Shown piece by piece: positions 3,557 through 56,068 of a stretch of 60,591 bases of DNA; positions within the stretch are counted from its first letter, which is position 1, and the number at the start of each line of letters is the position of its first letter. The notes under the pieces were generated by a model, which had not been told where the DNA came from, made no database searches, and saw only the letters and a program-made list of their open reading frames with translations. The stretch is from Candidatus Nealsonbacteria bacterium RIFCSPLOWO2_01_FULL_43_32. GTDB taxonomy: Bacteria > Patescibacteriota > Minisyncoccia > Minisyncoccales > MHMH01. Where the stretch lies: contig MHMH01000006.1 in NCBI GenBank assembly GCA_001819335.1, positions 1 through 60,591 of the forward strand, in the 5' to 3' direction. The translations under genes were made by a program, and so were the position numbers.

Positions 3557-3988
3557 TCAAATACCCATTTCTTTTAAACGTTCGGCAATGTCGCCGACCG
3601 AGCTTTCCGTTCTCTGTTTGTGCTCGGCCCATTTTTCTGAATCCCAGATTTCAATTTTAGTGGAAAGGCCGAGTAAGGTGACGTTTTTCTTTAAAACTGC
3701 GTAATTTTTCAAAGAGTCCGGGATGAGAATTCTGCCTAATTTATCAAGCTCAACGTCCGAGGCTTGAGAAAGCATCACCCGGGCAAAATTTCTCGCATCA
3801 GCTTGAGCGGTCGGCAGGTTGGCTAATTTCTGAGCCAGCTTTCCCCACTCGTCTAAAGTATAAATCACCAAACAATTTTCCAAGCCTTTGGTAATGACTG
3901 CTTTTTCGCCCAAGTCCTTTCTGAATTTGGCCGGGACGGCTAATCTTTTTTTAATATCAATGGTGTGTTGGTATTCGCCTATTAGCAT
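3557..3988 (-). CDS. mraZ: Transcriptional regulator MraZ
   Basis: 143 aa. Duplicated SpoVT/AbrB-like halves (DIKKRLAVPAKFR and DKLGRILIP). First gene of the dcw cluster. Confidence 0.95.
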   Translation of the reverse strand: MLIGEYQHTIDIKKRLAVPAKFRKDLGEKAVITKGLENCLVIYTLDEWGKLAQKLANLPTAQADARNFARVMLSQASDVELDKLGRILIPDSLKNYAVLKKNVTLLGLSTKIEIWDSEKWAEHKQRTESSVGDIAERLKEMGI

Positions 3989-3992
3989 GGAG

Positions 3993-4150
3993 TTATCCCC
4001 TAATTACTTACTTATCCCCATAATTATCCACAATTCGCCACTACAACTCCATTATCCCCCACCTAAAGGAGCTTGGTCAAGCTCCGCCAACTATGCCAAA
4101 ACACCTAAAAAAAGCCCTTAAAGGGCTTATTTATCCACTTTTTATCCACA
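3993..4150. promoter_or_regulatory. Array of six same-orientation TTATCC(A/C)C boxes upstream of mraZ (MraZ operator or DnaA boxes)
   Basis: Boxes at 3993, 4012, 4024 (TTATCCACA), 4052, 4131 (TTATCCACT) and 4142 (TTATCCACA). A putative minus-sense promoter TTGACC-N18-GATAAT overlaps box 4. Confidence 0.6.
4105..4128 (-). terminator. Intrinsic terminator after the DUF4015-like gene
   Basis: AAGCCC-TTAAA-GGGCTT stem followed by a U7 run in the minus sense. Confidence 0.6.
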
Positions 4151-8480: not shown

Positions 8481-8530
8481 AAAAAAACAAACCTTCACCC
8501 CCGACGTATCGTCGGGGAGAAGATTTGTTC
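8481..8530 (-). terminator. Intrinsic terminator after the membrane gene 8546..9223
   Basis: CCCCGACG-ATA-CGTCGGGG core within a longer imperfect stem, followed by U7 in the minus sense. Confidence 0.6.
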
Positions 8531-8545
8531 TGCAGTTATAAAAAA

Positions 8546-9223
8546 TTAACCCTTAAGCTTGCGGTATAAATCTTTTAAAACGTCAGCCGCGATTTCTTTC
8601 CCGCCCAAACCGAAAGCCAGGCCCGCCGAAATAACGATGACCGCCACTAAGCCGGTAAACAATGTTTGGACTAAAACCGCCCCCACCCCTAGCTGAACCA
8701 GGATGATGGAGATGGCAAAAATCCAAATGGACCACTTGATGATTAAGCCGACGATGTGGCCGTAGCCTGCTTTGATTGACTCGACCGAGGCTCGGACCAC
8801 TTTCTCCAGAATGTCAGCCAAGAGCACTGCTACTACGAAAATAAAGGCAGACACCACGACATTGGGCAGATAGCCAAGCACCTCTTTTAAGAGGCTGGCG
8901 AATTCTTTGAGACCCAACACTTCCACGGCCGCCATTAAAAAGACAATGGCTAAAACCCATTTGACAATGGCGCCGATAAAAGCCGAGGCGTCCACTTTGA
9001 TGTTGGCCTTGGCTAGGGCTTCGTCCCAATTGCCCTTCTCAAATATCTGATTAAATCTTATTCTCTTGAGAATTTCGGCAATCAATCCGCCCACGCCCAC
9101 CGAAATAAGCCAGCCGACGACAAAGATAATAATCGCTCCGACCAAAGCCGGGATAAGCGCCACAAACCCTTGCCAAAGATTCTGGAGGGCGTCCAGGGTG
9201 ACTGTGTACCAATCTAAAATCAT
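8546..9223 (-). CDS. Multi-pass membrane protein, mechanosensitive-channel-like TM-helix repeats
   Basis: 225 aa with about 5-6 TM helices. Weak resemblance to conserved-TM-helix (MscS-associated) proteins. No SD before the ATG. Confidence 0.5.
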   Translation of the reverse strand: MILDWYTVTLDALQNLWQGFVALIPALVGAIIIFVVGWLISVGVGGLIAEILKRIRFNQIFEKGNWDEALAKANIKVDASAFIGAIVKWVLAIVFLMAAVEVLGLKEFASLLKEVLGYLPNVVVSAFIFVVAVLLADILEKVVRASVESIKAGYGHIVGLIIKWSIWIFAISIILVQLGVGAVLVQTLFTGLVAVIVISAGLAFGLGGKEIAADVLKDLYRKLKG

Positions 9224-9235
9224 ATAATTATAATG

Positions 9236-9305
9236 CGAATCTTACGAATAATTATCCGAATACTACGAATATTCGTATCATTCGGATACGAATTCGCATC
9301 ATTCG
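9236..9305. promoter_or_regulatory. Dyad-symmetric array of 4 CGAAT + 4 ATTCG pentamers (copy A)
   Basis: CGAAT starts at 9236, 9245, 9257 and 9266. ATTCG starts at 9271, 9280, 9292 and 9301. Spacing is 9/12/9 on each arm. The array ends 12 nt from the ATG at 9223. Confidence 0.7.
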
Positions 9306-9517
9306 GATTTTGTTATATTTTTTCGACCTTTTAGGCGATGAAGTTTACCTCCTTCGGAGTTTGCCTTCATCTTCACCTTCGCCCCGCTTTGCGGGGCTCG
9401 GTTAAAGATTAGTGTATTATACAGGAGTCAAGTCAAACAAAAAAGCCATAGGGCTGTGGATAACCCTGAACCAGGTCAAAGACCGGTTCAGGGCCCTAAA
9501 CCGAGCTATGCTCTGGT

Positions 9518-9775
9518 TTAGGGGCTACTCACACTTGCTCTCAATATTAATTTTAGCGCTTTTTTACCTTTGTTTGTTTTAAAATAACCTTCTCTTCTTT
9601 TTGCATCCTCTTTGGAAATAAATGCTTCGTAAAAAATACAACGGAAGGGTAATCTCCTTTTTGTACTAATCGAACCACCAAATTTATGTTGTTGTAACCG
9701 TCGTTTAAGGTCAGAAGTAAAACCAATGTATAAATTTTTATCTTTCAAACTCTGCAGAACATAAGTATAATACAT
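9518..9775 (-). CDS. Stand-alone GIY-YIG nuclease-domain protein
   Basis: MYYTYVL...NLYIGFTSDLKRRLQQH...EA...E...K matches the GIY-YIG/UPF0213 pattern. 85 aa. Confidence 0.85.
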   Translation of the reverse strand: MYYTYVLQSLKDKNLYIGFTSDLKRRLQQHKFGGSISTKRRLPFRCIFYEAFISKEDAKRREGYFKTNKGKKALKLILRASVSSP

Positions 9776-10577: not shown

Positions 10578-11264
10578 TCATTTTTTAATTTCAAGGGCTG
10601 CTCTAGCTGCTTTTTCCTGAGCTTCCTGCTTAGAGAAGCCGCTGCCTTGAGCCACCAGCGCCTCTTTCAGGAAAACTCCGACCACAAAGTGACGGGCGTG
10701 GTCGGGGCCTGATTCTTCCAGCACTTTATAAGTAGGCGTCACTCCGGACTCTTCCTGGGCTTGTTCCTGAAAAAGAGATTTGGCGTCTTTAAATGACTGC
10801 GTCTCAAGAATCTTGGGCAATTCTTTGAGCAGGTGTCTTTTAATGAACTGCTGGCAGACCAGGTAGCCTTGGTCCAGATACAAGCTGCCGACGAAAGACT
10901 CAAAAGTATTGGCTAAAATATACTGCCGAGCCTTGCCTAATTCTTTTTGCTCTCCCCTGCTTAACAAAAGAAAACTGTTGAAATCAAGACTTCCGGCCAC
11001 TTGAGTGAGCATTTTGGCATTGACCAGAGCGGCTCGCCAATTAGTCAGCTCGCCTTCTGATTTTTTAGGATATTTCTGAAAAAGATACTCGGTCACCGCC
11101 AGCTCCAAAACAGCGTCTCCTAGAAACTCCAGCCTTTCATTGTGGTAAAGATGGAATTTGGGGTTCTCGTTCAGGTAAGAACGATGGATAAAGGCCTGGG
11201 TTAATAAGTCCTTGTTTTTAAATTTAACTTTGAGTTTTTTTTCTAATTTGGAAAAATCGTGCAT
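10578..11264 (-). CDS. rnc: Ribonuclease III
   Basis: Signature ERLEFLGDAVLE plus a C-terminal dsRBD. Confidence 0.95.
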   Translation of the reverse strand: MHDFSKLEKKLKVKFKNKDLLTQAFIHRSYLNENPKFHLYHNERLEFLGDAVLELAVTEYLFQKYPKKSEGELTNWRAALVNAKMLTQVAGSLDFNSFLLLSRGEQKELGKARQYILANTFESFVGSLYLDQGYLVCQQFIKRHLLKELPKILETQSFKDAKSLFQEQAQEESGVTPTYKVLEESGPDHARHFVVGVFLKEALVAQGSGFSKQEAQEKAARAALEIKK

Positions 11265-11273
11265 AAAAATCAG

Positions 11274-11326
11274 CGAATAACTAATTCTTTGCGAATATAC
11301 GAATTCGTAAATTCGTAACTTATTCG
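11274..11326. promoter_or_regulatory. Shorter CGAAT/ATTCG dyad array upstream of rnc
   Basis: CGAAT at 11274, 11292 and 11300. ATTCG at 11303, 11311 and 11322. Central TACGAATTCGTA. rnc has no SD. Confidence 0.5.
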
Positions 11327-11757
11327 CGATTAGTTGATTTATCTATTTCTTTATAAACCGTGCCCAGAACCCCGTTGATGAATTTGCCGGAGCTTTCTCC
11401 GCCAAAGGTTTTGGCCAGTTCAATGGCTTCGTTAATGGCCACTTTGGGCGGCACCTCTTCCTTGTTCTCGTATAACAGTTCAAAAAGGCCCATTCTTAAA
11501 ACATTCCGGTCCACAATGGTAATCTGATCAATGGGCCATTCGGGCGCGGCCTTCTCAATGATTTTGTCTACTTGAGGCAAATGTTTTTTAACGCCGTTGA
11601 CCAGCTGCCAGACAAAATCAACCTTCTCCAGCCCCGGACCGTATTCTTTAATATTCTTTTCCACAATCTTATCCAAAGCATCTTCTTTTTTACCGGAAAA
11701 ATCCCACTCGTAGAGGGATTGCATGGCGATGCTTCTTGAAAGGTGCCGTGATGCCAT
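11320..11757 (-). CDS. nusB: Transcription antitermination factor NusB
   Basis: 145 aa. SR..A.Q.LY N-terminus and an ...[11 protein letters not shown] helix typical of NusB. Confidence 0.9.
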
Positions 11758-11767
11758 TATAATACTT

Positions 11768-11805
11768 ACCTCCCGAGGGTGCTTATTTAAACACCCTCGG
11801 GAGGT
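11768..11805 (-). promoter_or_regulatory. SD-sequestering hairpin upstream of nusB (family copy)
   Basis: ACCTCCCGAGGGTG (11768-81) pairs with CACCCTCGGGAGGT (11792-805). In the minus sense the 3' arm carries GGAGG 10 nt before the nusB ATG. Confidence 0.75.
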
Positions 11806-11813
11806 GTTTAGGA

Positions 11814-12863: not shown

Positions 12864-12911
12864 TATAGAATTATATCATTTTTTAAAATAAAAAAGCTCT
12901 GGCTTTCTTTT

Positions 12912-16985: not shown

Positions 16986-17032
16986 TATTTTATTATACTA
17001 AATCATTAGAATTATGGAAGTCCGACTCCCAT
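16289..17032 (-). mobile_element. RAYT/IS200-like unit 1: Y1 transposase gene bracketed by cognate hairpins
   Basis: ATGGGAGTC-C-GACTCCCAT at 16289-16307 and ATGGAAGTC-C-GACTCCCAT at 17014-17032. Confidence 0.7.
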
Positions 17033-37787: not shown

Positions 37788-39193
37788 AATTGTTCAAAAA
37801 TTTCGGCCAGGGCTAAAATTTTATGTTCACTAAATGGTTGACCAATCATCTGCAGACCGACGGGTAGAGCGCCCACTTTACCGCAGGGCAAAGAAAGGGC
37901 GGGCAGACCGGCTAAGTTGACCGAAACCGTGTAAACATCAACCAGATACATGGATAAAGGGTCTTTGATTTTTTCGCCGAGTTTAAATGGCAGTACAGGG
38001 GAAGTCGGAGTTAACAGCACGTCCACTTTCTGGAAAACCTTTTTGAAATCATTGATAATTTGCGTCCTGACTTTCTGCGCCCTCAAATAATAGGCCTCGT
38101 AATAACCGGACGACAAAGCATAGGTACCCAGCATGATTCTCCGTCTGACTTCGGGGCCGAAGCCCTGGCCCCGGGATTTCAGATAAACTTCCATTAGGTC
38201 TTTGCCTAAAGCCGCGTAGCCGTATTTTATCCCATCATAACGAGCCAGATTAGCCGAAGCTTCTGAAGGATTAATCATGTAATAAGCAGGCAGAGCGGCT
38301 TCGGTATGGGGCAAGCTCACTTCAATGAGCTTGGCGCCGGCTTTTTCGTATTTTCGAATCGCTTCTTTGACGAGCCTCTCAATACTCGGGTCAATTCCTT
38401 TGACAAAATACTCCTTGGGCATGCCAATCTTTAAATTTCGAATTTCGAATTTCGAATTTCGAATTTTTGATTCCACCGAAGTGGAATCAAGCGGATCTTG
38501 GCCCGCGATGGCCTCAAATACTATTTTAGCATCTTCCACGGTCTTTGTGATGGGACCAATTTGGTCCAAAGAAGAAGCAAAAGCAATCAAACCATAACGG
38601 GAAACCGCTCCATAAGTGGGCTTTAAGCCCACCACGCCGCAGAAAGAAGCAGGCTGGCGGACAGAACCTCCGGTGTCTGAACCAAGCGCATAGATAGACA
38701 TGTCGGCAGCCACAGCTGCCGCTGAACCACCTGATGTTCCACCGGGTACTCGGGTCAGGTCGTGCGGGTTGCGAGTCGGGCCAAAAGCCGAGTTCTCGGT
38801 AGAGGAACCCATGGCAAACTCATCAAGATTGGTCTTGCCCAGAATAATTGCTCCCTGCTTTTTAAGCTTGGCTACTACTGTAGCATCATAGGGAGCTACA
38901 TAGTTTTCCAGCATCCTGGAACCAGCCGTGCATTTGACGTTTTCAATCAGGATATTATCTTTGATGGCAGCCGAAATCCCAGCCAGCAAAGATATCTCTT
39001 GGCCAGTGGCCAATAGGTCATCTATTTTCTTAGCTTGAGTCAGGGCCGCACTTTCATCAACGCTTAAAAAAGCATGGATTGATTTGTCTTGCTCTTTGAT
39101 TTTATTTAAATGGGCTTGGCAAAGTTCCAGAGCAGAAAATTGTTTTTTCTTCAGCCCCTGATGCGCCTGAGCGATGGTTAATTCGGTTAACAT
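37784..39193 (-). CDS. gatA: Glu-tRNA(Gln) amidotransferase subunit A
   Basis: Amidase signature GGTSGGSAAAVAA and GSDTGGSVRQPA. Confidence 0.95.
   Translation of the reverse strand: MLTELTIAQAHQGLKKKQFSALELCQAHLNKIKEQDKSIHAFLSVDESAALTQAKKIDDLLATGQEISLLAGISAAIKDNILIENVKCTAGSRMLENYVAPYDATVVAKLKKQGAIILGKTNLDEFAMGSSTENSAFGPTRNPHDLTRVPGGTSGGSAAAVAADMSIYALGSDTGGSVRQPASFCGVVGLKPTYGAVSRYGLIAFASSLDQIGPITKTVEDAKIVFEAIAGQDPLDSTSVESKIRNSKFEIRNLKIGMPKEYFVKGIDPSIERLVKEAIRKYEKAGAKLIEVSLPHTEAALPAYYMINPSEASANLARYDGIKYGYAALGKDLMEVYLKSRGQGFGPEVRRRIMLGTYALSSGYYEAYYLRAQKVRTQIINDFKKVFQKVDVLLTPTSPVLPFKLGEKIKDPLSMYLVDVYTVSVNLAGLPALSLPCGKVGALPVGLQMIGQPFSEHKILALAEIFEQL
38434..38468. repeat. Heptanucleotide tandem repeat (AATTTCG)x4 plus a partial unit, inside gatA
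   Basis: Units at 38434, 38441, 38448 and 38455. Translated as IRNSKFEIRNLK. Confidence 0.8.
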
Positions 39194-41734: not shown

Positions 41735-42814
41735 TTAAAAAAGTCTGGGGATGTCGAACTTGACCGTGACAAAAACCATCAGCATAATCAATAAAACAAA
41801 GAAAGTGGCGGTAATCTTCTGCTCTACCTTGTAATTGATGGGCTTGCCCCTGACGCCTTCTATCAGCAGAAAAAATAGCTTGCCCCCGTCCAGAGCCGGA
41901 ATGGGCAGAATGTTCGCCAAGGCCAAAGCTAAGGCGATTAAAGAGATTAAAAATAGAAAATAATTGATACCTAAGGCAGAATATTCCCTGAGCAGTTCAA
42001 AAATCCCTAACGGCCCCATCATTTCCATTTTCATCCCAGCCGGCAGTTTAATCAACCCGAACGCACTTTTTAAGCCCAGCACCCAACCGTTAACGATATC
42101 TAAAGAAAGCTGCCAAGCAGTCAACACCCCTTGCCCGGGCGCTTCATACCAAGTGTAAGATTTAAAAGCAGTCCTGACCAAACCGATACCAATGGCGCCT
42201 TCTCCCTCGGGCGGAGCAACCCTGGGGATAATCTTTTCGTTAAAAACCTGGCTGCCTCTTTTAAGCGTCAGCACAATTTCCTCTCCCTGATGAGCGTCAA
42301 TAAACTCTTGAACGTCCTTTACTTTTTCAAAACCGACAATAATATCGCCCGCTCTTAAGCCGGCTGCTTGAGCTGGAGAATGATCAGCTATTTGGGTAAT
42401 CTGAATTTTAGGGCCTATTAAATTATGATTATCCTCGTCAGAAACAGCCGTGGGCAACCCCCAAATGCCAGCCACCACGCTTAATAAAATCACCGCCACA
42501 ATCCAAAAAGAAACCACGCCTCCCAAAACAATGGCCACTCTCTGCCAGATGGGCTTGCCGATAAAACTGCGGTAATCCTCAATACCGCCTTCTTCACCGT
42601 GGATTTTAACAAAAGCGCCGAACGGCCAAAGATTCAAAGAATAAACGGTCTCCCCGATTTTCTTACCCAAGACACGAGGCGGATAGCCGATGCCGAATTC
42701 CTCAACCTTAACGCCGAATTTTTTGGCTAAAATAAAATGGCCCAGCTCATGAATGATAATGAGGGCGATTAAACTGAAAAAAGCAATAATAATTGTAAAA
42801 AACATATTCGTCAA
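41735..42814 (-). CDS. rseP: Site-2 (RseP/M50) zinc metalloprotease with PDZ domain
   Basis: HELGHF motif, PDZ-like AAGLRAGDII, C-terminal TM helices. Confidence 0.85.
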   Translation of the reverse strand: MTNMFFTIIIAFFSLIALIIIHELGHFILAKKFGVKVEEFGIGYPPRVLGKKIGETVYSLNLWPFGAFVKIHGEEGGIEDYRSFIGKPIWQRVAIVLGGVVSFWIVAVILLSVVAGIWGLPTAVSDEDNHNLIGPKIQITQIADHSPAQAAGLRAGDIIVGFEKVKDVQEFIDAHQGEEIVLTLKRGSQVFNEKIIPRVAPPEGEGAIGIGLVRTAFKSYTWYEAPGQGVLTAWQLSLDIVNGWVLGLKSAFGLIKLPAGMKMEMMGPLGIFELLREYSALGINYFLFLISLIALALALANILPIPALDGGKLFFLLIEGVRGKPINYKVEQKITATFFVLLIMLMVFVTVKFDIPRLF

Positions 42815-42828
42815 TTAGGACAAATTCG

Positions 42829-43386
42829 CTATTCGCTGATTTCTTTCTTCTTCTTTTCGGCGAGAGTGTTAATTTTCTTTTGATAATCGTCCACCAATTC
42901 CTGCAACTCGTCTTTGGCGCGGAATTTATCGTCTTCTCGTATTTTCCCCTCCTTAAAGCCGTCTTGAACCTCTTTCCAGGCCTCTTCTCTCCACCGCCTG
43001 ACGGTTTGCTTGGCCTGTTCTTGTTTTTCCGACAAAAGACGGAGCAAATCCTTGCGATAATCTTCGGTCAAAGGAGGCAGGGTGATACGGACAGTATCCT
43101 TATCAACGATGGGATTTATGCCTATGCCGGTTTTGGATAAGGCCGCGACAATCCCTTCAATATAGGATTTATCCCAGGGCTGAATGAGAATCTGCTTGGC
43201 TTCGGGCGTGGAAATGGCCGCTAACTGCTTTAAAGGAAATTTCTGGCCGAAACAATCAGCCACCACGTCTTCCACCAAGGAAGGCGTAGCTCGGCCCGTG
43301 CGGATTTTACCCAGCTCCCCTTCCAGAAACCCGACCACCTTATCCATCTCCGGCTTAATCTTATTGATGATTTCTTTGTATTCCAT
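42829..43386 (-). CDS. frr: Ribosome recycling factor
   Basis: 185 aa; L..IRTGRA.P.L...V pattern. Confidence 0.95.
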   Translation of the reverse strand: MEYKEIINKIKPEMDKVVGFLEGELGKIRTGRATPSLVEDVVADCFGQKFPLKQLAAISTPEAKQILIQPWDKSYIEGIVAALSKTGIGINPIVDKDTVRITLPPLTEDYRKDLLRLLSEKQEQAKQTVRRWREEAWKEVQDGFKEGKIREDDKFRAKDELQELVDDYQKKINTLAEKKKKEISE

Positions 43387-52892: not shown

Positions 52893-53243
52893 TTATTTGA
52901 CTAATTCTATCAAGGCCATTTCAGCGCCATCGCTTTGCCTTACGCCCAGCTTGATGATCCTGGTAAAGCCTCCCCGCCTTGACTGGTATCTTGGCGCTAC
53001 GTCATCAATAAGCTTTTTTACGACTTTGGGAGTAAAAAACCGGCCAAGCCTTTTTCTTGAAGACAAATTGGCTTTTTTAGCTTGGGTGATCAATGTTTCA
53101 ACAACAATTCTTGCCTCTTTGGCCTTGGCTTCGGTTGTTTTAATCTTCTCTTCCAGGATAAGAGAGGCAGCCAAACTTTTTAATAAAGCCCGGCGCTGAG
53201 CCTTTTCTCTACTTAGTTTTCTTCTTTTTTTTCTTTTCTGCAT
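52893..53243 (-). CDS. rplQ: 50S ribosomal protein L17
   Basis: KLSR....RRALL..L...L..E.I.TT.AKAKE pattern. Overlaps the rpoA 3' end by 35 nt. Confidence 0.9.
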   Translation of the reverse strand: MQKRKKRRKLSREKAQRRALLKSLAASLILEEKIKTTEAKAKEARIVVETLITQAKKANLSSRKRLGRFFTPKVVKKLIDDVAPRYQSRRGGFTRIIKLGVRQSDGAEMALIELVK

Positions 53244-53994
53244 GTTTTTGAACTTTCTTTGTTCTCTTTACTTTTTCCTTAACTACCGAAGCTTTGACTA
53301 ATGAAGGCACCTCTTTAAAGACCTCGCTTAACAGAGAAAAGTGCCTGACCAAAATTTCTGAAGCCTGAGAGAGCGCTCCCTCCGGAGTGGTCGTGCCGTC
53401 GGTTTCTAACTCCAGAATCAAACGGTCAAAGTCGGTCCGCTCACCCACTCTCATGCTCTCAACCCGATAGCTTACTTTTCTGACCGGGGTGAAGATAGCG
53501 TCTACGGCAATGGTGCCGATTTCTAATTTGCCTTTTTTCCTGGTTTCCACCGGTTCGTAGCCCAAACCTTTTTCAATCAGGATTTCTATCTCCAGGTTAG
53601 CTGTCGGAGCGGTTAAGGTGGCCACATGGACGTCTTGATTCATTAAATCCACCTGGGAGGGCAATGCGAAATTGGCTCCTTTGACTGCTTTTTGGCCTTT
53701 AACTTTGAGGGTGGCTTGCTGGGGCTCTTCAGTATGCAATTTGAATCTTAACTGTTTGATGTTGAGCAAAATGGTAATGACGTCTTCAATCACGCCAGGG
53801 ATAGTTGAAAATTCGTGCTGAACGCCCTTGATTTTAACCTGGGTGACCGCGGCACCTTCTAAAGAAGAAAGTAAAACCCGGCGTAAAGAGTTGCCTATGG
53901 TTACACCGTAGCCCGGGTAAAGGCCGGCTATTTCAAAAATGGCTCGGTTGTCTTTTTTCTCGATGACTTTTGGCTGAAGCGGTAAGGGAATCAT
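53209..53994 (-). CDS. rpoA: RNA polymerase alpha subunit, N-terminal domain only with a Lys-rich tail
   Basis: GYGVTIGNSLRRVLLSS motif. 261 aa, ending KVKRTKKVQKHAEKKKKKKTK. No alpha-CTD sequence. Confidence 0.9.
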   Translation of the reverse strand: MIPLPLQPKVIEKKDNRAIFEIAGLYPGYGVTIGNSLRRVLLSSLEGAAVTQVKIKGVQHEFSTIPGVIEDVITILLNIKQLRFKLHTEEPQQATLKVKGQKAVKGANFALPSQVDLMNQDVHVATLTAPTANLEIEILIEKGLGYEPVETRKKGKLEIGTIAVDAIFTPVRKVSYRVESMRVGERTDFDRLILELETDGTTTPEGALSQASEILVRHFSLLSEVFKEVPSLVKASVVKEKVKRTKKVQKHAEKKKKKKTK

Positions 53995-54011
53995 ATAAAT
54001 AATATATAATC

Positions 54012-54081
54012 CGAATTCTTCGAATAGTTATCCGAATTCTACGAATATTCGTATCATTCGGATAAAAATTCGTATCATTCG
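54012..54081. promoter_or_regulatory. Dyad-symmetric array of 4 CGAAT + 4 ATTCG pentamers (copy B) between rpsD and rpoA
   Basis: CGAAT at 54012, 54021, 54033 and 54042. ATTCG at 54047, 54056, 54068 and 54077. Spacing identical to copy A. Confidence 0.7.
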
Positions 54082-54092
54082 CATTATGTTAA

Positions 54093-55164: not shown

Positions 55165-55172
55165 TTCTAATC

Positions 55173-55206
55173 ACCTCCCGAGGGTCAGTAAACACCCTCG
55201 GGAGGT
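55173..55206 (-). promoter_or_regulatory. SD-sequestering hairpin upstream of rpsK (family copy)
   Basis: ACCTCCCGAGGGT (55173-85) pairs with ACCCTCGGGAGGT (55194-206). GGAGG lies 9-10 nt before the ATG. Confidence 0.75.
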
Positions 55207-55215
55207 ATTTAATTA

Positions 55216-55616: not shown

Positions 55617-55730
55617 TTAACCCTGGCGTTGTTTGTGTTTCGGGTTTTTACAGATGACATAAATTTTTCCTTTACGTCGAACTATTTTGCAATGACTGCA
55701 GATTGTTTTGACCGATGGTTGTACCTTCAT
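55617..55730 (-). CDS. rpmJ: 50S ribosomal protein L36
   Basis: Hand translation [37 protein letters not shown] (37 aa). Not in the ORF track. Confidence 0.9.
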
Positions 55731-55740
55731 AAAAAATCAT

Positions 55741-55799
55741 CGAATAGCGAATCAGTTGCGAATTTACGAATTCGTATATTCGTATTTTTTCGTTATTCG
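55741..55799. promoter_or_regulatory. CGAAT/ATTCG dyad array upstream of rpmJ
   Basis: CGAAT at 55741, 55748, 55759 and 55767. ATTCG at 55770, 55778 and 55795. Central TACGAATTCGTA as before rnc. Confidence 0.5.
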
Positions 55800-55808
55800 T
55801 TGATTTAT

Positions 55809-56030: not shown

Positions 56031-56068
56031 TAATTAATATATAACTAAGGATAGCAGACAACTAAAAG

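Follow-up and report, generated by a model that had tools for sequence, protein, structure and literature searches.

The sequence analysed (referred to as the window) comprised positions 1 to 60,591 of contig MHMH01000006.1 (GenBank assembly GCA_001819335.1) of Candidatus Nealsonbacteria bacterium RIFCSPLOWO2_01_FULL_43_32, i.e. 60,591 nt, and the element under study is an array of eight pentamers at 9236-9305. On balance, this array is likely to be a copy without open reading frame (ORF), a 'solo' copy similar to repetitive extragenic palindromic (REP) sequences, of a selfish palindromic repeat element associated with GxxExxY nucleases. It is probably not a gene-specific operator. The element consists of two arms of four short direct repeats (CGAAT here, CNAAT generally), which face each other across a dyad. 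In the full-length form, the same arms with the same spacing surround one small GxxExxY (PF13366/TIGR04256) gene exactly at the dyad centre, and arrays were statistically associated with GxxExxY genes. The family is widespread in Patescibacteria (candidate phyla radiation, CPR), is present in some other phyla too, and was gained and lost at orthologous sites.

The window contained the following copies:

Array A (type A/B), 9228..9313, no strand assigned: pentamers at 9236-9305, four CGAAT facing four ATTCG, spacing 9/12/9 in each arm with 5 at the centre; left terminus TTATAATG, right terminus degenerate.
Array B (twin of A), 54004..54089, no strand assigned: pentamers at 54012-54081, termini ATATAATC and GCATTATGT; occupies the rpsD-rpoA spacer.
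Array C (type C/D), 11269..11338, no strand assigned: between nusB and rnc, ATCA...TGAT ends, spacing 7/11/8, 3 at the centre and 8/11/7; centre CGAATTCG.
Array D (type C/D), 55736..55804, no strand assigned: occupies the infA-rpmJ spacer, one degenerate pentamer (TTTCG), centre CGAATTCG, ATCA...TGAT ends.
Half array (type C/D), 42806..42840, reverse strand: single arm ATCAgCGAATagCGAATttgtcCTAATtgaCGAAT, abutting the ATG of an RseP-like protease gene (41735-42805).

Array A reads CGAATcttaCGAATaattatcCGAATactaCGAAT followed by ATTCGtatcATTCGgataCGAATTCGcatcATTCG, with CGAAT starting at 9236, 9245, 9257 and 9266 and ATTCG at 9271, 9280, 9292 and 9301; an extra ninth CGAAT (start 9289) overlaps others. 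The eight positions had been listed in an earlier note on this DNA and were confirmed, together with the near-identical array before rpoA (54012-54081), the distance of 12 nt between the array end and the ATG of gene 8546..9223, and spacers that are self-complementary only in part. The same note had described shorter arrays of this pattern before rnc and rpmJ. Both are present, but they are not shorter (4+4 pentamers if one degenerate pentamer each, CTAAT and TTTCG, is allowed), and they share the mirrored layout of array A but not its spacing (7/11/8, 3, 8/11/7). Array C has degenerate outer pentamers (CTAAT/ATTAG) and includes the stop codon of nusB (11320-11322). The TAG stop codon of the upstream gene lies within the half array, and downstream of the RseP-like gene no counterpart arm was found.

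CGAATN4CGAAT was found eight times in the window versus 0.22 times expected from shuffles (0 of 100 shuffles reached 8), and all eight copies were located in array A and its twin B. CGAAT overall was not enriched (59 + 57 copies vs. ~63 expected per strand); its copies were concentrated in the four intergenic arrays. With 4.5 array copies in 60 kb, extragenic imperfect palindromes were numerous, a feature shared with REP families, and all five window copies ended 0-18 nt from a start codon. A tandem (TTCGAAT)x4 at 38439-38466, in the coding sequence of gene 37784-39193 (encoding ..KIRNSKFEIRNLKI..), holds the pentamer but looks unrelated to the dyad arrays. Rfam and tRNA scans of the window yielded five tRNAs only, and nothing at or beside the arrays.

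Species-representative genomes were scanned with the type C/D core CGAATN3CGAATTCGN3ATTCG. More than 117 stretches were obtained among the matches listed, nearly all from CPR and from many classes. Hosts among these matches were Nealson-, Magasanik-, Uhr-, Falkow-, Doudna-, Komeili-, Wildermuth-, Lipton-, Staskawicz-, Azam-, Jorgensen-, Sungii- and Portnoybacteria, and at least 10 contigs of JAHIOY01 carried copies. The type C/D consensus was ATCAaCGAATaaCGAATn6CGAATntaCGAATTCGtanATTCGn6ATTCGttATTCGtTGAT. The type A/B core matched 60 stretches and was found on at least 15 contigs of the Nealsonbacteria-like genome CAYZHR01, where the termini read ATATAAT[g/c]CGAAT...ATTCG[g/c]ATTATAT. The TATAAT next to the ATG at array A, from which a leaderless start of that gene had been considered possible, therefore belongs to the conserved terminus of the element. 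Mirrored spacings were 9/12/9, 7/11/8, 9/10/9 and 8/10/8 across subfamilies. Outside CPR, similar 4+4 or 3+3 arrays were found in Syntrophaceae/Deltaproteobacteria (e.g. the acsE-acsD spacer), Prevotella and Planctomycetota. Viral contigs gave three array matches in all and no evidence for phage carriage. The idea that a different motif per lineage reflects a fast-evolving transcription factor was dropped, because CGAAT arrays span many CPR classes and the motif tracks GxxExxY cassettes.

The link to GxxExxY genes was seen in split arrays. At locus L195, located between prfB and ftsE, one arm of four forward and one of four inverted repeats (7/11/8 and 8/11/7, ATCA/TGAT ends) lie on either side of a single ORF of 135 aa, which encodes a GxxExxY protein (PF13366 PDDEXK_3, E = 9e-32; TIGR04256). 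Split arrays enclosing GxxExxY genes were found at L195/L256, L257, L227/L268/L282 and L285. Another GxxExxY gene (L227/L268) lies between type A/B arms in the Nealsonbacteria-like genome that carries numerous arrays of this type. A protein identical to it (P0001) is encoded between rpsC and rplP in Nealsonbacteria GCA_002774145, in the order S3, four forward repeats, GNAT fragment, four inverted repeats, GxxExxY, three inverted repeats, L16. In sequence, spacing and termini, the window arrays agree with the arms that bracket GxxExxY genes, namely those of L256/L257 for type C/D and those of L227/L282 for type A/B.

GxxExxY genes were also gathered independently of the array motif. Genes were counted as bracketed if at least three exact copies of a 5-mer were present within 170 nt upstream and at least three copies of its reverse complement downstream. 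This was the case for 10 of 28 GxxExxY genes versus 8 of 605 control ORFs (Fisher p = 1.7e-10), a conservative count because degenerate motifs were missed. Overall, the dyad arrays seen around GxxExxY genes had motifs that differed between lineages:

CGAAT: Staskawiczbacteria, Microgenomates.
ACGAA: Liptonbacteria.
CAAAT: L260, L267.
Mixed CNAAT: atpD-atpC spacer, L288.
GGGAT: Ilyomonas.
CAGGA: Saprospiraceae.
CACGAAA: Bacteroidales.
CACnGAT: WOR-3.

An AlphaFold (AF2) model of GxxExxY (predicted local distance difference test score, pLDDT, 90) showed a minimal PD-(D/E)XK nuclease core. A PDB sequence search retrieved no GxxExxY relative with a solved structure, and PADLOC yielded nothing useful. 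In Bacteroidales (L269-L273), ORF-less CACGAAA/TTTCGTG dyad arrays, each occurring as several tandem copies, were observed beside GxxExxY genes and near tRNA genes.

Genomic contexts were sampled, not complete, and were taken from loci found via the array pattern itself. Among 109 arrays, the flanking genes were co-directional in 57 cases, divergent in 4 and convergent in 8. The last group represents 8/69 (~12%) of the arrays for which the genes on both sides were classified, roughly the rate that would be expected of any intergenic element. At 80 rpoA loci that were compared as related, the spacer between rpsD and rpoA was near-absent, or held a CGAAT array (L043) or another short-motif dyad array; it was empty in the closest relatives (L001-L005). 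The infA-rpmJ spacer likewise was empty (TGAcaaatcaATG) in L001 and L002. What looked like a 'TGCAA array' in relatives proved to be a false match within the rpmJ coding sequence. Upstream genes often end within the element (ATC AAC GAA TAA, i.e. ..INE and stop; also ..ISE and stop), and start codons overlap the element end at TGAT-G. Copies were also present in 23S rRNA genes: 78 nt were inserted at model positions ~225-232 in L123, further copies were found in L162 and L105, and L149 carried copies at at least six sites, on the tips of longer inverted repeats. These contexts do not fit an operator or promoter device tied to particular genes, a reading to which the earlier note had pointed, and fit an insertion-prone repeat element. 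The two findings that the note had named as refuting it, a lack of positional bias to gene starts and a lack of conserved phasing, were thus observed in part: copies were not restricted to gene starts, and phasing differed between subfamilies but was always mirrored.

Two side observations were made at these sites. In Parcubacteria, the rpsD-rpoA spacers (~3880-4000) of L012, L021, L026, L035, L040, L059, L063 and L077 held dyad arrays of other units (TTAACAT period 8, ATTTTCA/AGAAATT period 7, AAAGAGC, AACAAGA, CCGAT/CTGAT, GATCT), which may be further families of the same class. The 23S rRNA gene of L149 (2798-7152; DAIDAM010000002.1) has a length of 4355 nt and ~18 insertions in comparison with L162; besides those with CGAAT arrays, some carry different repeats (GCAGAA/CGCAGA-type).

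For analysis of the constraint on the pentamers, array A was compared with its ortholog at the same gene in another Nealsonbacteria genome (L216, MHMD01000017). Of 7 differences in 70 nt, none affected the pentamers (0/43) and all were in the spacers (7/27; hypergeometric 7e-4 = C(27,7)/C(70,7)). Covariation was assessed with 31 strictly aligned type C/D copies, by comparison of mirrored spacers within and between arrays. Complementarity showed no excess within arrays (2.10 vs. 2.55, 0.90 vs. 1.05 and 1.81 vs. 1.87, within vs. between). The outer pentamers and ATCA/TGAT ends, both outside the search pattern, were ~90-100% conserved in the 31 copies. Because of the dyad symmetry, a long interrupted hairpin folds, and the folds of all arrays were much more stable than those of shuffles (z -3.6 to -7.8). 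Owing to G-U/A-C asymmetry, stability differs between the two strands by up to 10 kcal/mol, with sense folding better for A and B and antisense folding much better for D. Across 126 arrays with known gene direction, no sense/antisense bias was detected (56 vs. 68, p = 0.14). An RNA hairpin selected on the sense strand was rejected on the strand comparison and the covariation test. From the L216 changes, the covariation test and the strand tests it follows that the pentamers are constrained as sequence and not as base pairs, i.e. that they are under sequence-specific purifying constraint. On this point the earlier note, which had favoured repeated protein contacts on DNA over an RNA hairpin, was supported.

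Such constraint, with half-site sequence conserved independently of pairing potential, would also be expected of a host transcription-factor operator or enhancer. Here a symmetric oligomer would bind the eight pentamers on one DNA face and control a leaderless or near-leaderless promoter, and GxxExxY genes would merely home into or adjoin the sites. The pentamer pairs 21 bp apart in types A/B, the proximity of all five window copies to start codons, an outward-reading cATTAT in the element terminus that precedes the ATG of the array A gene by 6 nt and leaderless-type TGnTATAAT promoters elsewhere in the window are consistent with this explanation. As array A is kept with intact pentamers at the orthologous gene, the operator therefore stays as a rival. 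It is nevertheless unlikely, given the copies within 23S rRNA genes, the arms enclosing a nuclease gene, the empty housekeeping spacers in the closest relatives, and copies at convergent gene ends at about the frequency expected of any intergenic element instead of a restriction to promoters. Moreover, spacing, though mirrored throughout, is not fixed between subfamilies (7/11/8 vs. 9/12/9), a -10-like hexamer at leaderless distance is absent from arrays C and D, and the downstream genes (rpoA, rpmJ, rnc, groEL, rplQ, membrane proteins) are functionally unrelated. Likenesses to DnaA, Fur, ArgR and LexA boxes were rejected since motif and spacing misfit, and the RexT motif (ATTCG-N15-CGAAT) is an unrelated single palindrome.

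An element acting at the RNA level is quite unlikely as well. It would be an imperfect hairpin cut by RNase III, like 23S intervening sequences (IVS) or T7 intercistronic sites, or would couple cistron translation in a genome poor in Shine-Dalgarno (SD) sequences, and its repeats would be incidental. The strong folding of the arrays, their IVS-like location within operons and 23S rRNA genes at tips of longer stems, and the array directly upstream of rnc agree with this. In a survey of CPR rRNA insertions, many short non-intron insertions were reported at sites consistent with known IVS sites; no such repeat was described (PMC11270868). An RNA element would account for the tolerance of these sequences, but not for the conservation of the pentamers, which are kept across phylum-level distances although a structure-only constraint does not need it. 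Neither compensatory variation in the mirrored spacers nor a sense-strand preference was found despite the strand differences in stability, and copies between convergent genes also argue against it. An intrinsic (bidirectional) terminator or chance AT-rich palindrome, for which dyad symmetry, intergenic position and some copies at convergent gene ends may be cited, is very improbable: the stem is AT-rich and interrupted, not GC-rich, and is without consistent U tract, ordinary GC-rich hairpin and T-run terminators exist in the genome (e.g. 8488-8510), termination would be harmful within rRNA genes and essential operons, where copies occur, and chance is excluded by the shuffle test.

Several points weigh against array A being a solo copy of a selfish, GxxExxY-associated element. 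No GxxExxY gene is present within the 60-kb window, and no canonical transposase was associated with the arrays. Comparison of filled and empty spacers, of which there were few pairs and diverged ones, revealed no target-site duplication. Both the activity of the GxxExxY protein and its binding to the pentamers are putative, and its best structural matches (Cas4/lambda-exonuclease cores, Hjc-type resolvases) were weak (template-modelling score, TM, ~0.5, E > 1e-3). The sampling of contexts via the array pattern counts here as well. Other cargo was found between arms, namely a truncated GNAT acetyltransferase ORF (L282 2661-2924) and two membrane-protein genes (L136 2756-4071), which hints at cassette-like behaviour. 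Finally, the intact pentamers at the orthologous L216 locus suggest selection there, and thus a host function (regulatory or architectural) over a purely selfish remnant.

For the GxxExxY-associated element, the following mechanism is proposed. A symmetric protein oligomer, most probably the GxxExxY nuclease supplied in trans, would contact the pentamers on duplex DNA and would copy, move or maintain the elements. This would be analogous to the REP-associated tyrosine transposases (RAYT) with their REP sequences, or to a homing nuclease with its own gene at the centre of its palindromic site, which is thereby split. As a self-contained imperfect palindrome, the element would give a transcript that folds on itself, and would therefore be tolerated, and perhaps excised in an IVS-like manner, in polycistronic mRNAs and rRNA. 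Such tolerance would explain its accumulation in spacers of a few nt, by start and stop codons, of a compact genome. The neighbouring membrane gene would be affected only incidentally, if at all; the conserved cATTAT at array A could act as a weak -10 or weak leaderless promoter.

Genes next to the four arrays were:

8546..9223, reverse strand: membrane protein with an MscS-type conserved transmembrane-helix domain; flanks array A, ATG 12 nt from the array.
53209..53994, reverse strand: rpoA; flanks array B, 261 aa, no match to the alpha C-terminal domain (alpha-CTD).
10578..11264, reverse strand: rnc (RNase III); gene downstream of array C.
55617..55730, reverse strand: rpmJ (L36); gene downstream of array D.

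Spacers are wholly occupied by array C between nusB and rnc, by D between infA and rpmJ and by B between rpsD and rpoA, and array A precedes the MscS-type membrane gene. This gene indeed lacks an SD sequence, as had been noted before, but the feature is not special to array genes: SD-less starts are the majority in the window. Absence of an SD sequence therefore does not single out array genes, and the idea of arrays as marks of SD-less or leaderless genes was rejected. In several window genes, TGnTATAAT or TATAAT ends 6 nt before the ATG (e.g. 12864-12880, 16986-17002, 56031-56050), a placement that suggests frequent leaderless mRNAs. Judged by similarity of its rpoA gene, the window belongs to a Candidatus Nealsonbacteria genome (Parcubacteria, CPR). 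RpoA (53209-53994) matched N-terminal and insert domains only, with no alpha-CTD detected, and classical UP-element or activator contacts via the alpha-CTD may be absent in this organism.

A second repeated element, a GC-rich intergenic hairpin (ACCTCCCGAGGGTG-loop-CACCCTCGGGAGGT), was observed at 11758-11813, 35529-35592 and 55165-55215. Its 3' arm contains a strong SD sequence (GGGAGGT), which the start codons (ATG) of nusB, gene 31257-35528 and rpsK, respectively, follow at a distance of 7-9 nt; its 5' arm resembles an anti-SD sequence. Gene 31257-35528, which is preceded by the copy at 35529-35592, encodes a large RNA-polymerase subunit. The hairpin may sequester the SD sequence or serve in processing, in a genome with mostly SD-less genes. 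Beside array A, ~75 extra nt (9329-9405) are present relative to the ortholog L216. They fold as two hairpins (GATGAAG...CTCC-TTCG-GAG...CTTCATC with UUCG loop, and GCCCCGCtttGCGGGGC) without Rfam match and may be another small insertion or a non-coding RNA. A stand-alone 85-aa GIY-YIG domain ORF (9518-9775) lies ~210 nt from array A; it was rejected as partner because no regular link with arrays was seen at other loci.

A large part of bacterial diversity belongs to the CPR/Patescibacteria, whose genomes are very small and compact. The element resides in spacers of their most conserved operons (S10, alpha, groESL, atp) and in 23S rRNA genes, and consequences are likely for the expression of operons, the processing of rRNA, and the assembly and annotation of genomes. 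Arrays of this kind should not be taken for regulons of nearby genes during annotation. The GxxExxY link provides a testable function for a widespread family, and a defined DNA site with a candidate protein for biochemistry in organisms which are very hard to grow. The function of PDDEXK_3 was given as 'Unknown' in a 2012 survey (PMC3424549), and GxxExxY received passing mentions only in the open literature. In open-access literature, no description of the element and no link of CPR with REP or miniature inverted-repeat transposable elements (MITEs) were found; as extragenic palindromic repeats with an associated enzyme gene, the element is apparently undescribed. There is a fair chance that the pairing of enzyme and repeat is a new class. 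More tentatively, CGAAT arrays and GxxExxY genes might together form a REPtron-like selfish class of their own, in which a PD-(D/E)XK nuclease reads arrays of 5-bp repeats, ORF-less copies have colonised CPR operon spacers and rRNA genes, and variants exist in Bacteroidota, WOR-3 and Deltaproteobacteria. If so, this would be the first function for the large GxxExxY/PDDEXK_3 family and would account for part of the unusual CPR rRNA insertions.

Among known systems, REP sequences and bacterial interspersed mosaic elements (BIME) with RAYT genes ('REPtrons') are also short imperfect palindromes with many extragenic copies, often within operons. In both cases a few copies in inverted orientation flank a small single-domain enzyme gene and most are ORF-less, sequences are lineage-specific, and sites are gained and lost between relatives. 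The element described here differs in that it has no GTAG/CGTC head motif and ends with ATCA...TGAT or ATATAAT...ATTATAT, each arm consists of four direct repeats of 5 bp instead of one hairpin, its gene encodes a PD-(D/E)XK protein (GxxExxY, PF13366/TIGR04256) instead of an IS200/IS605-type Y1 transposase, and copies are also found within rRNA genes.

The RNase III-excised IVS of 23S rRNA, some of which carry a small ORF of the PF05635 family, likewise have inverted-repeat stems able to enclose a small ORF, and are sporadic in 23S rRNA genes of reduced genomes; related copies of the element are present in CPR 23S genes. In contrast, the window copies are located in mRNA spacers, the ORF family of the element is not PF05635, its stems are built of conserved repeated pentamers, and its excision is putative. 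MITEs (Correia elements of Neisseria, NEMIS) are small ORF-less palindromic insertions by genes and are able to bring promoters and RNase III sites; inverted termini were also observed in the element. Transposons Tn7 and Mu have several protein sites of the same orientation per end, inverted between ends, an arrangement like that of the pentamers. Unlike these, the element showed no target-site duplication in the few diverged spacer pairs compared and no canonical transposase partner, and the whole of it is 60-85 bp long with nothing between the arms. Repeat-array operators (omega repressor heptads of pSM19035, MetJ metboxes, MraZ boxes) have direct and inverted units of 5-8 bp that are read by oligomers on duplex DNA. 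They are tied to specific promoters, whereas copies of the element are scattered over many unrelated sites, rRNA genes and convergent gene ends among them. The element thus appears to differ from REP/RAYT systems, 23S IVS and MITEs each in a defining feature.
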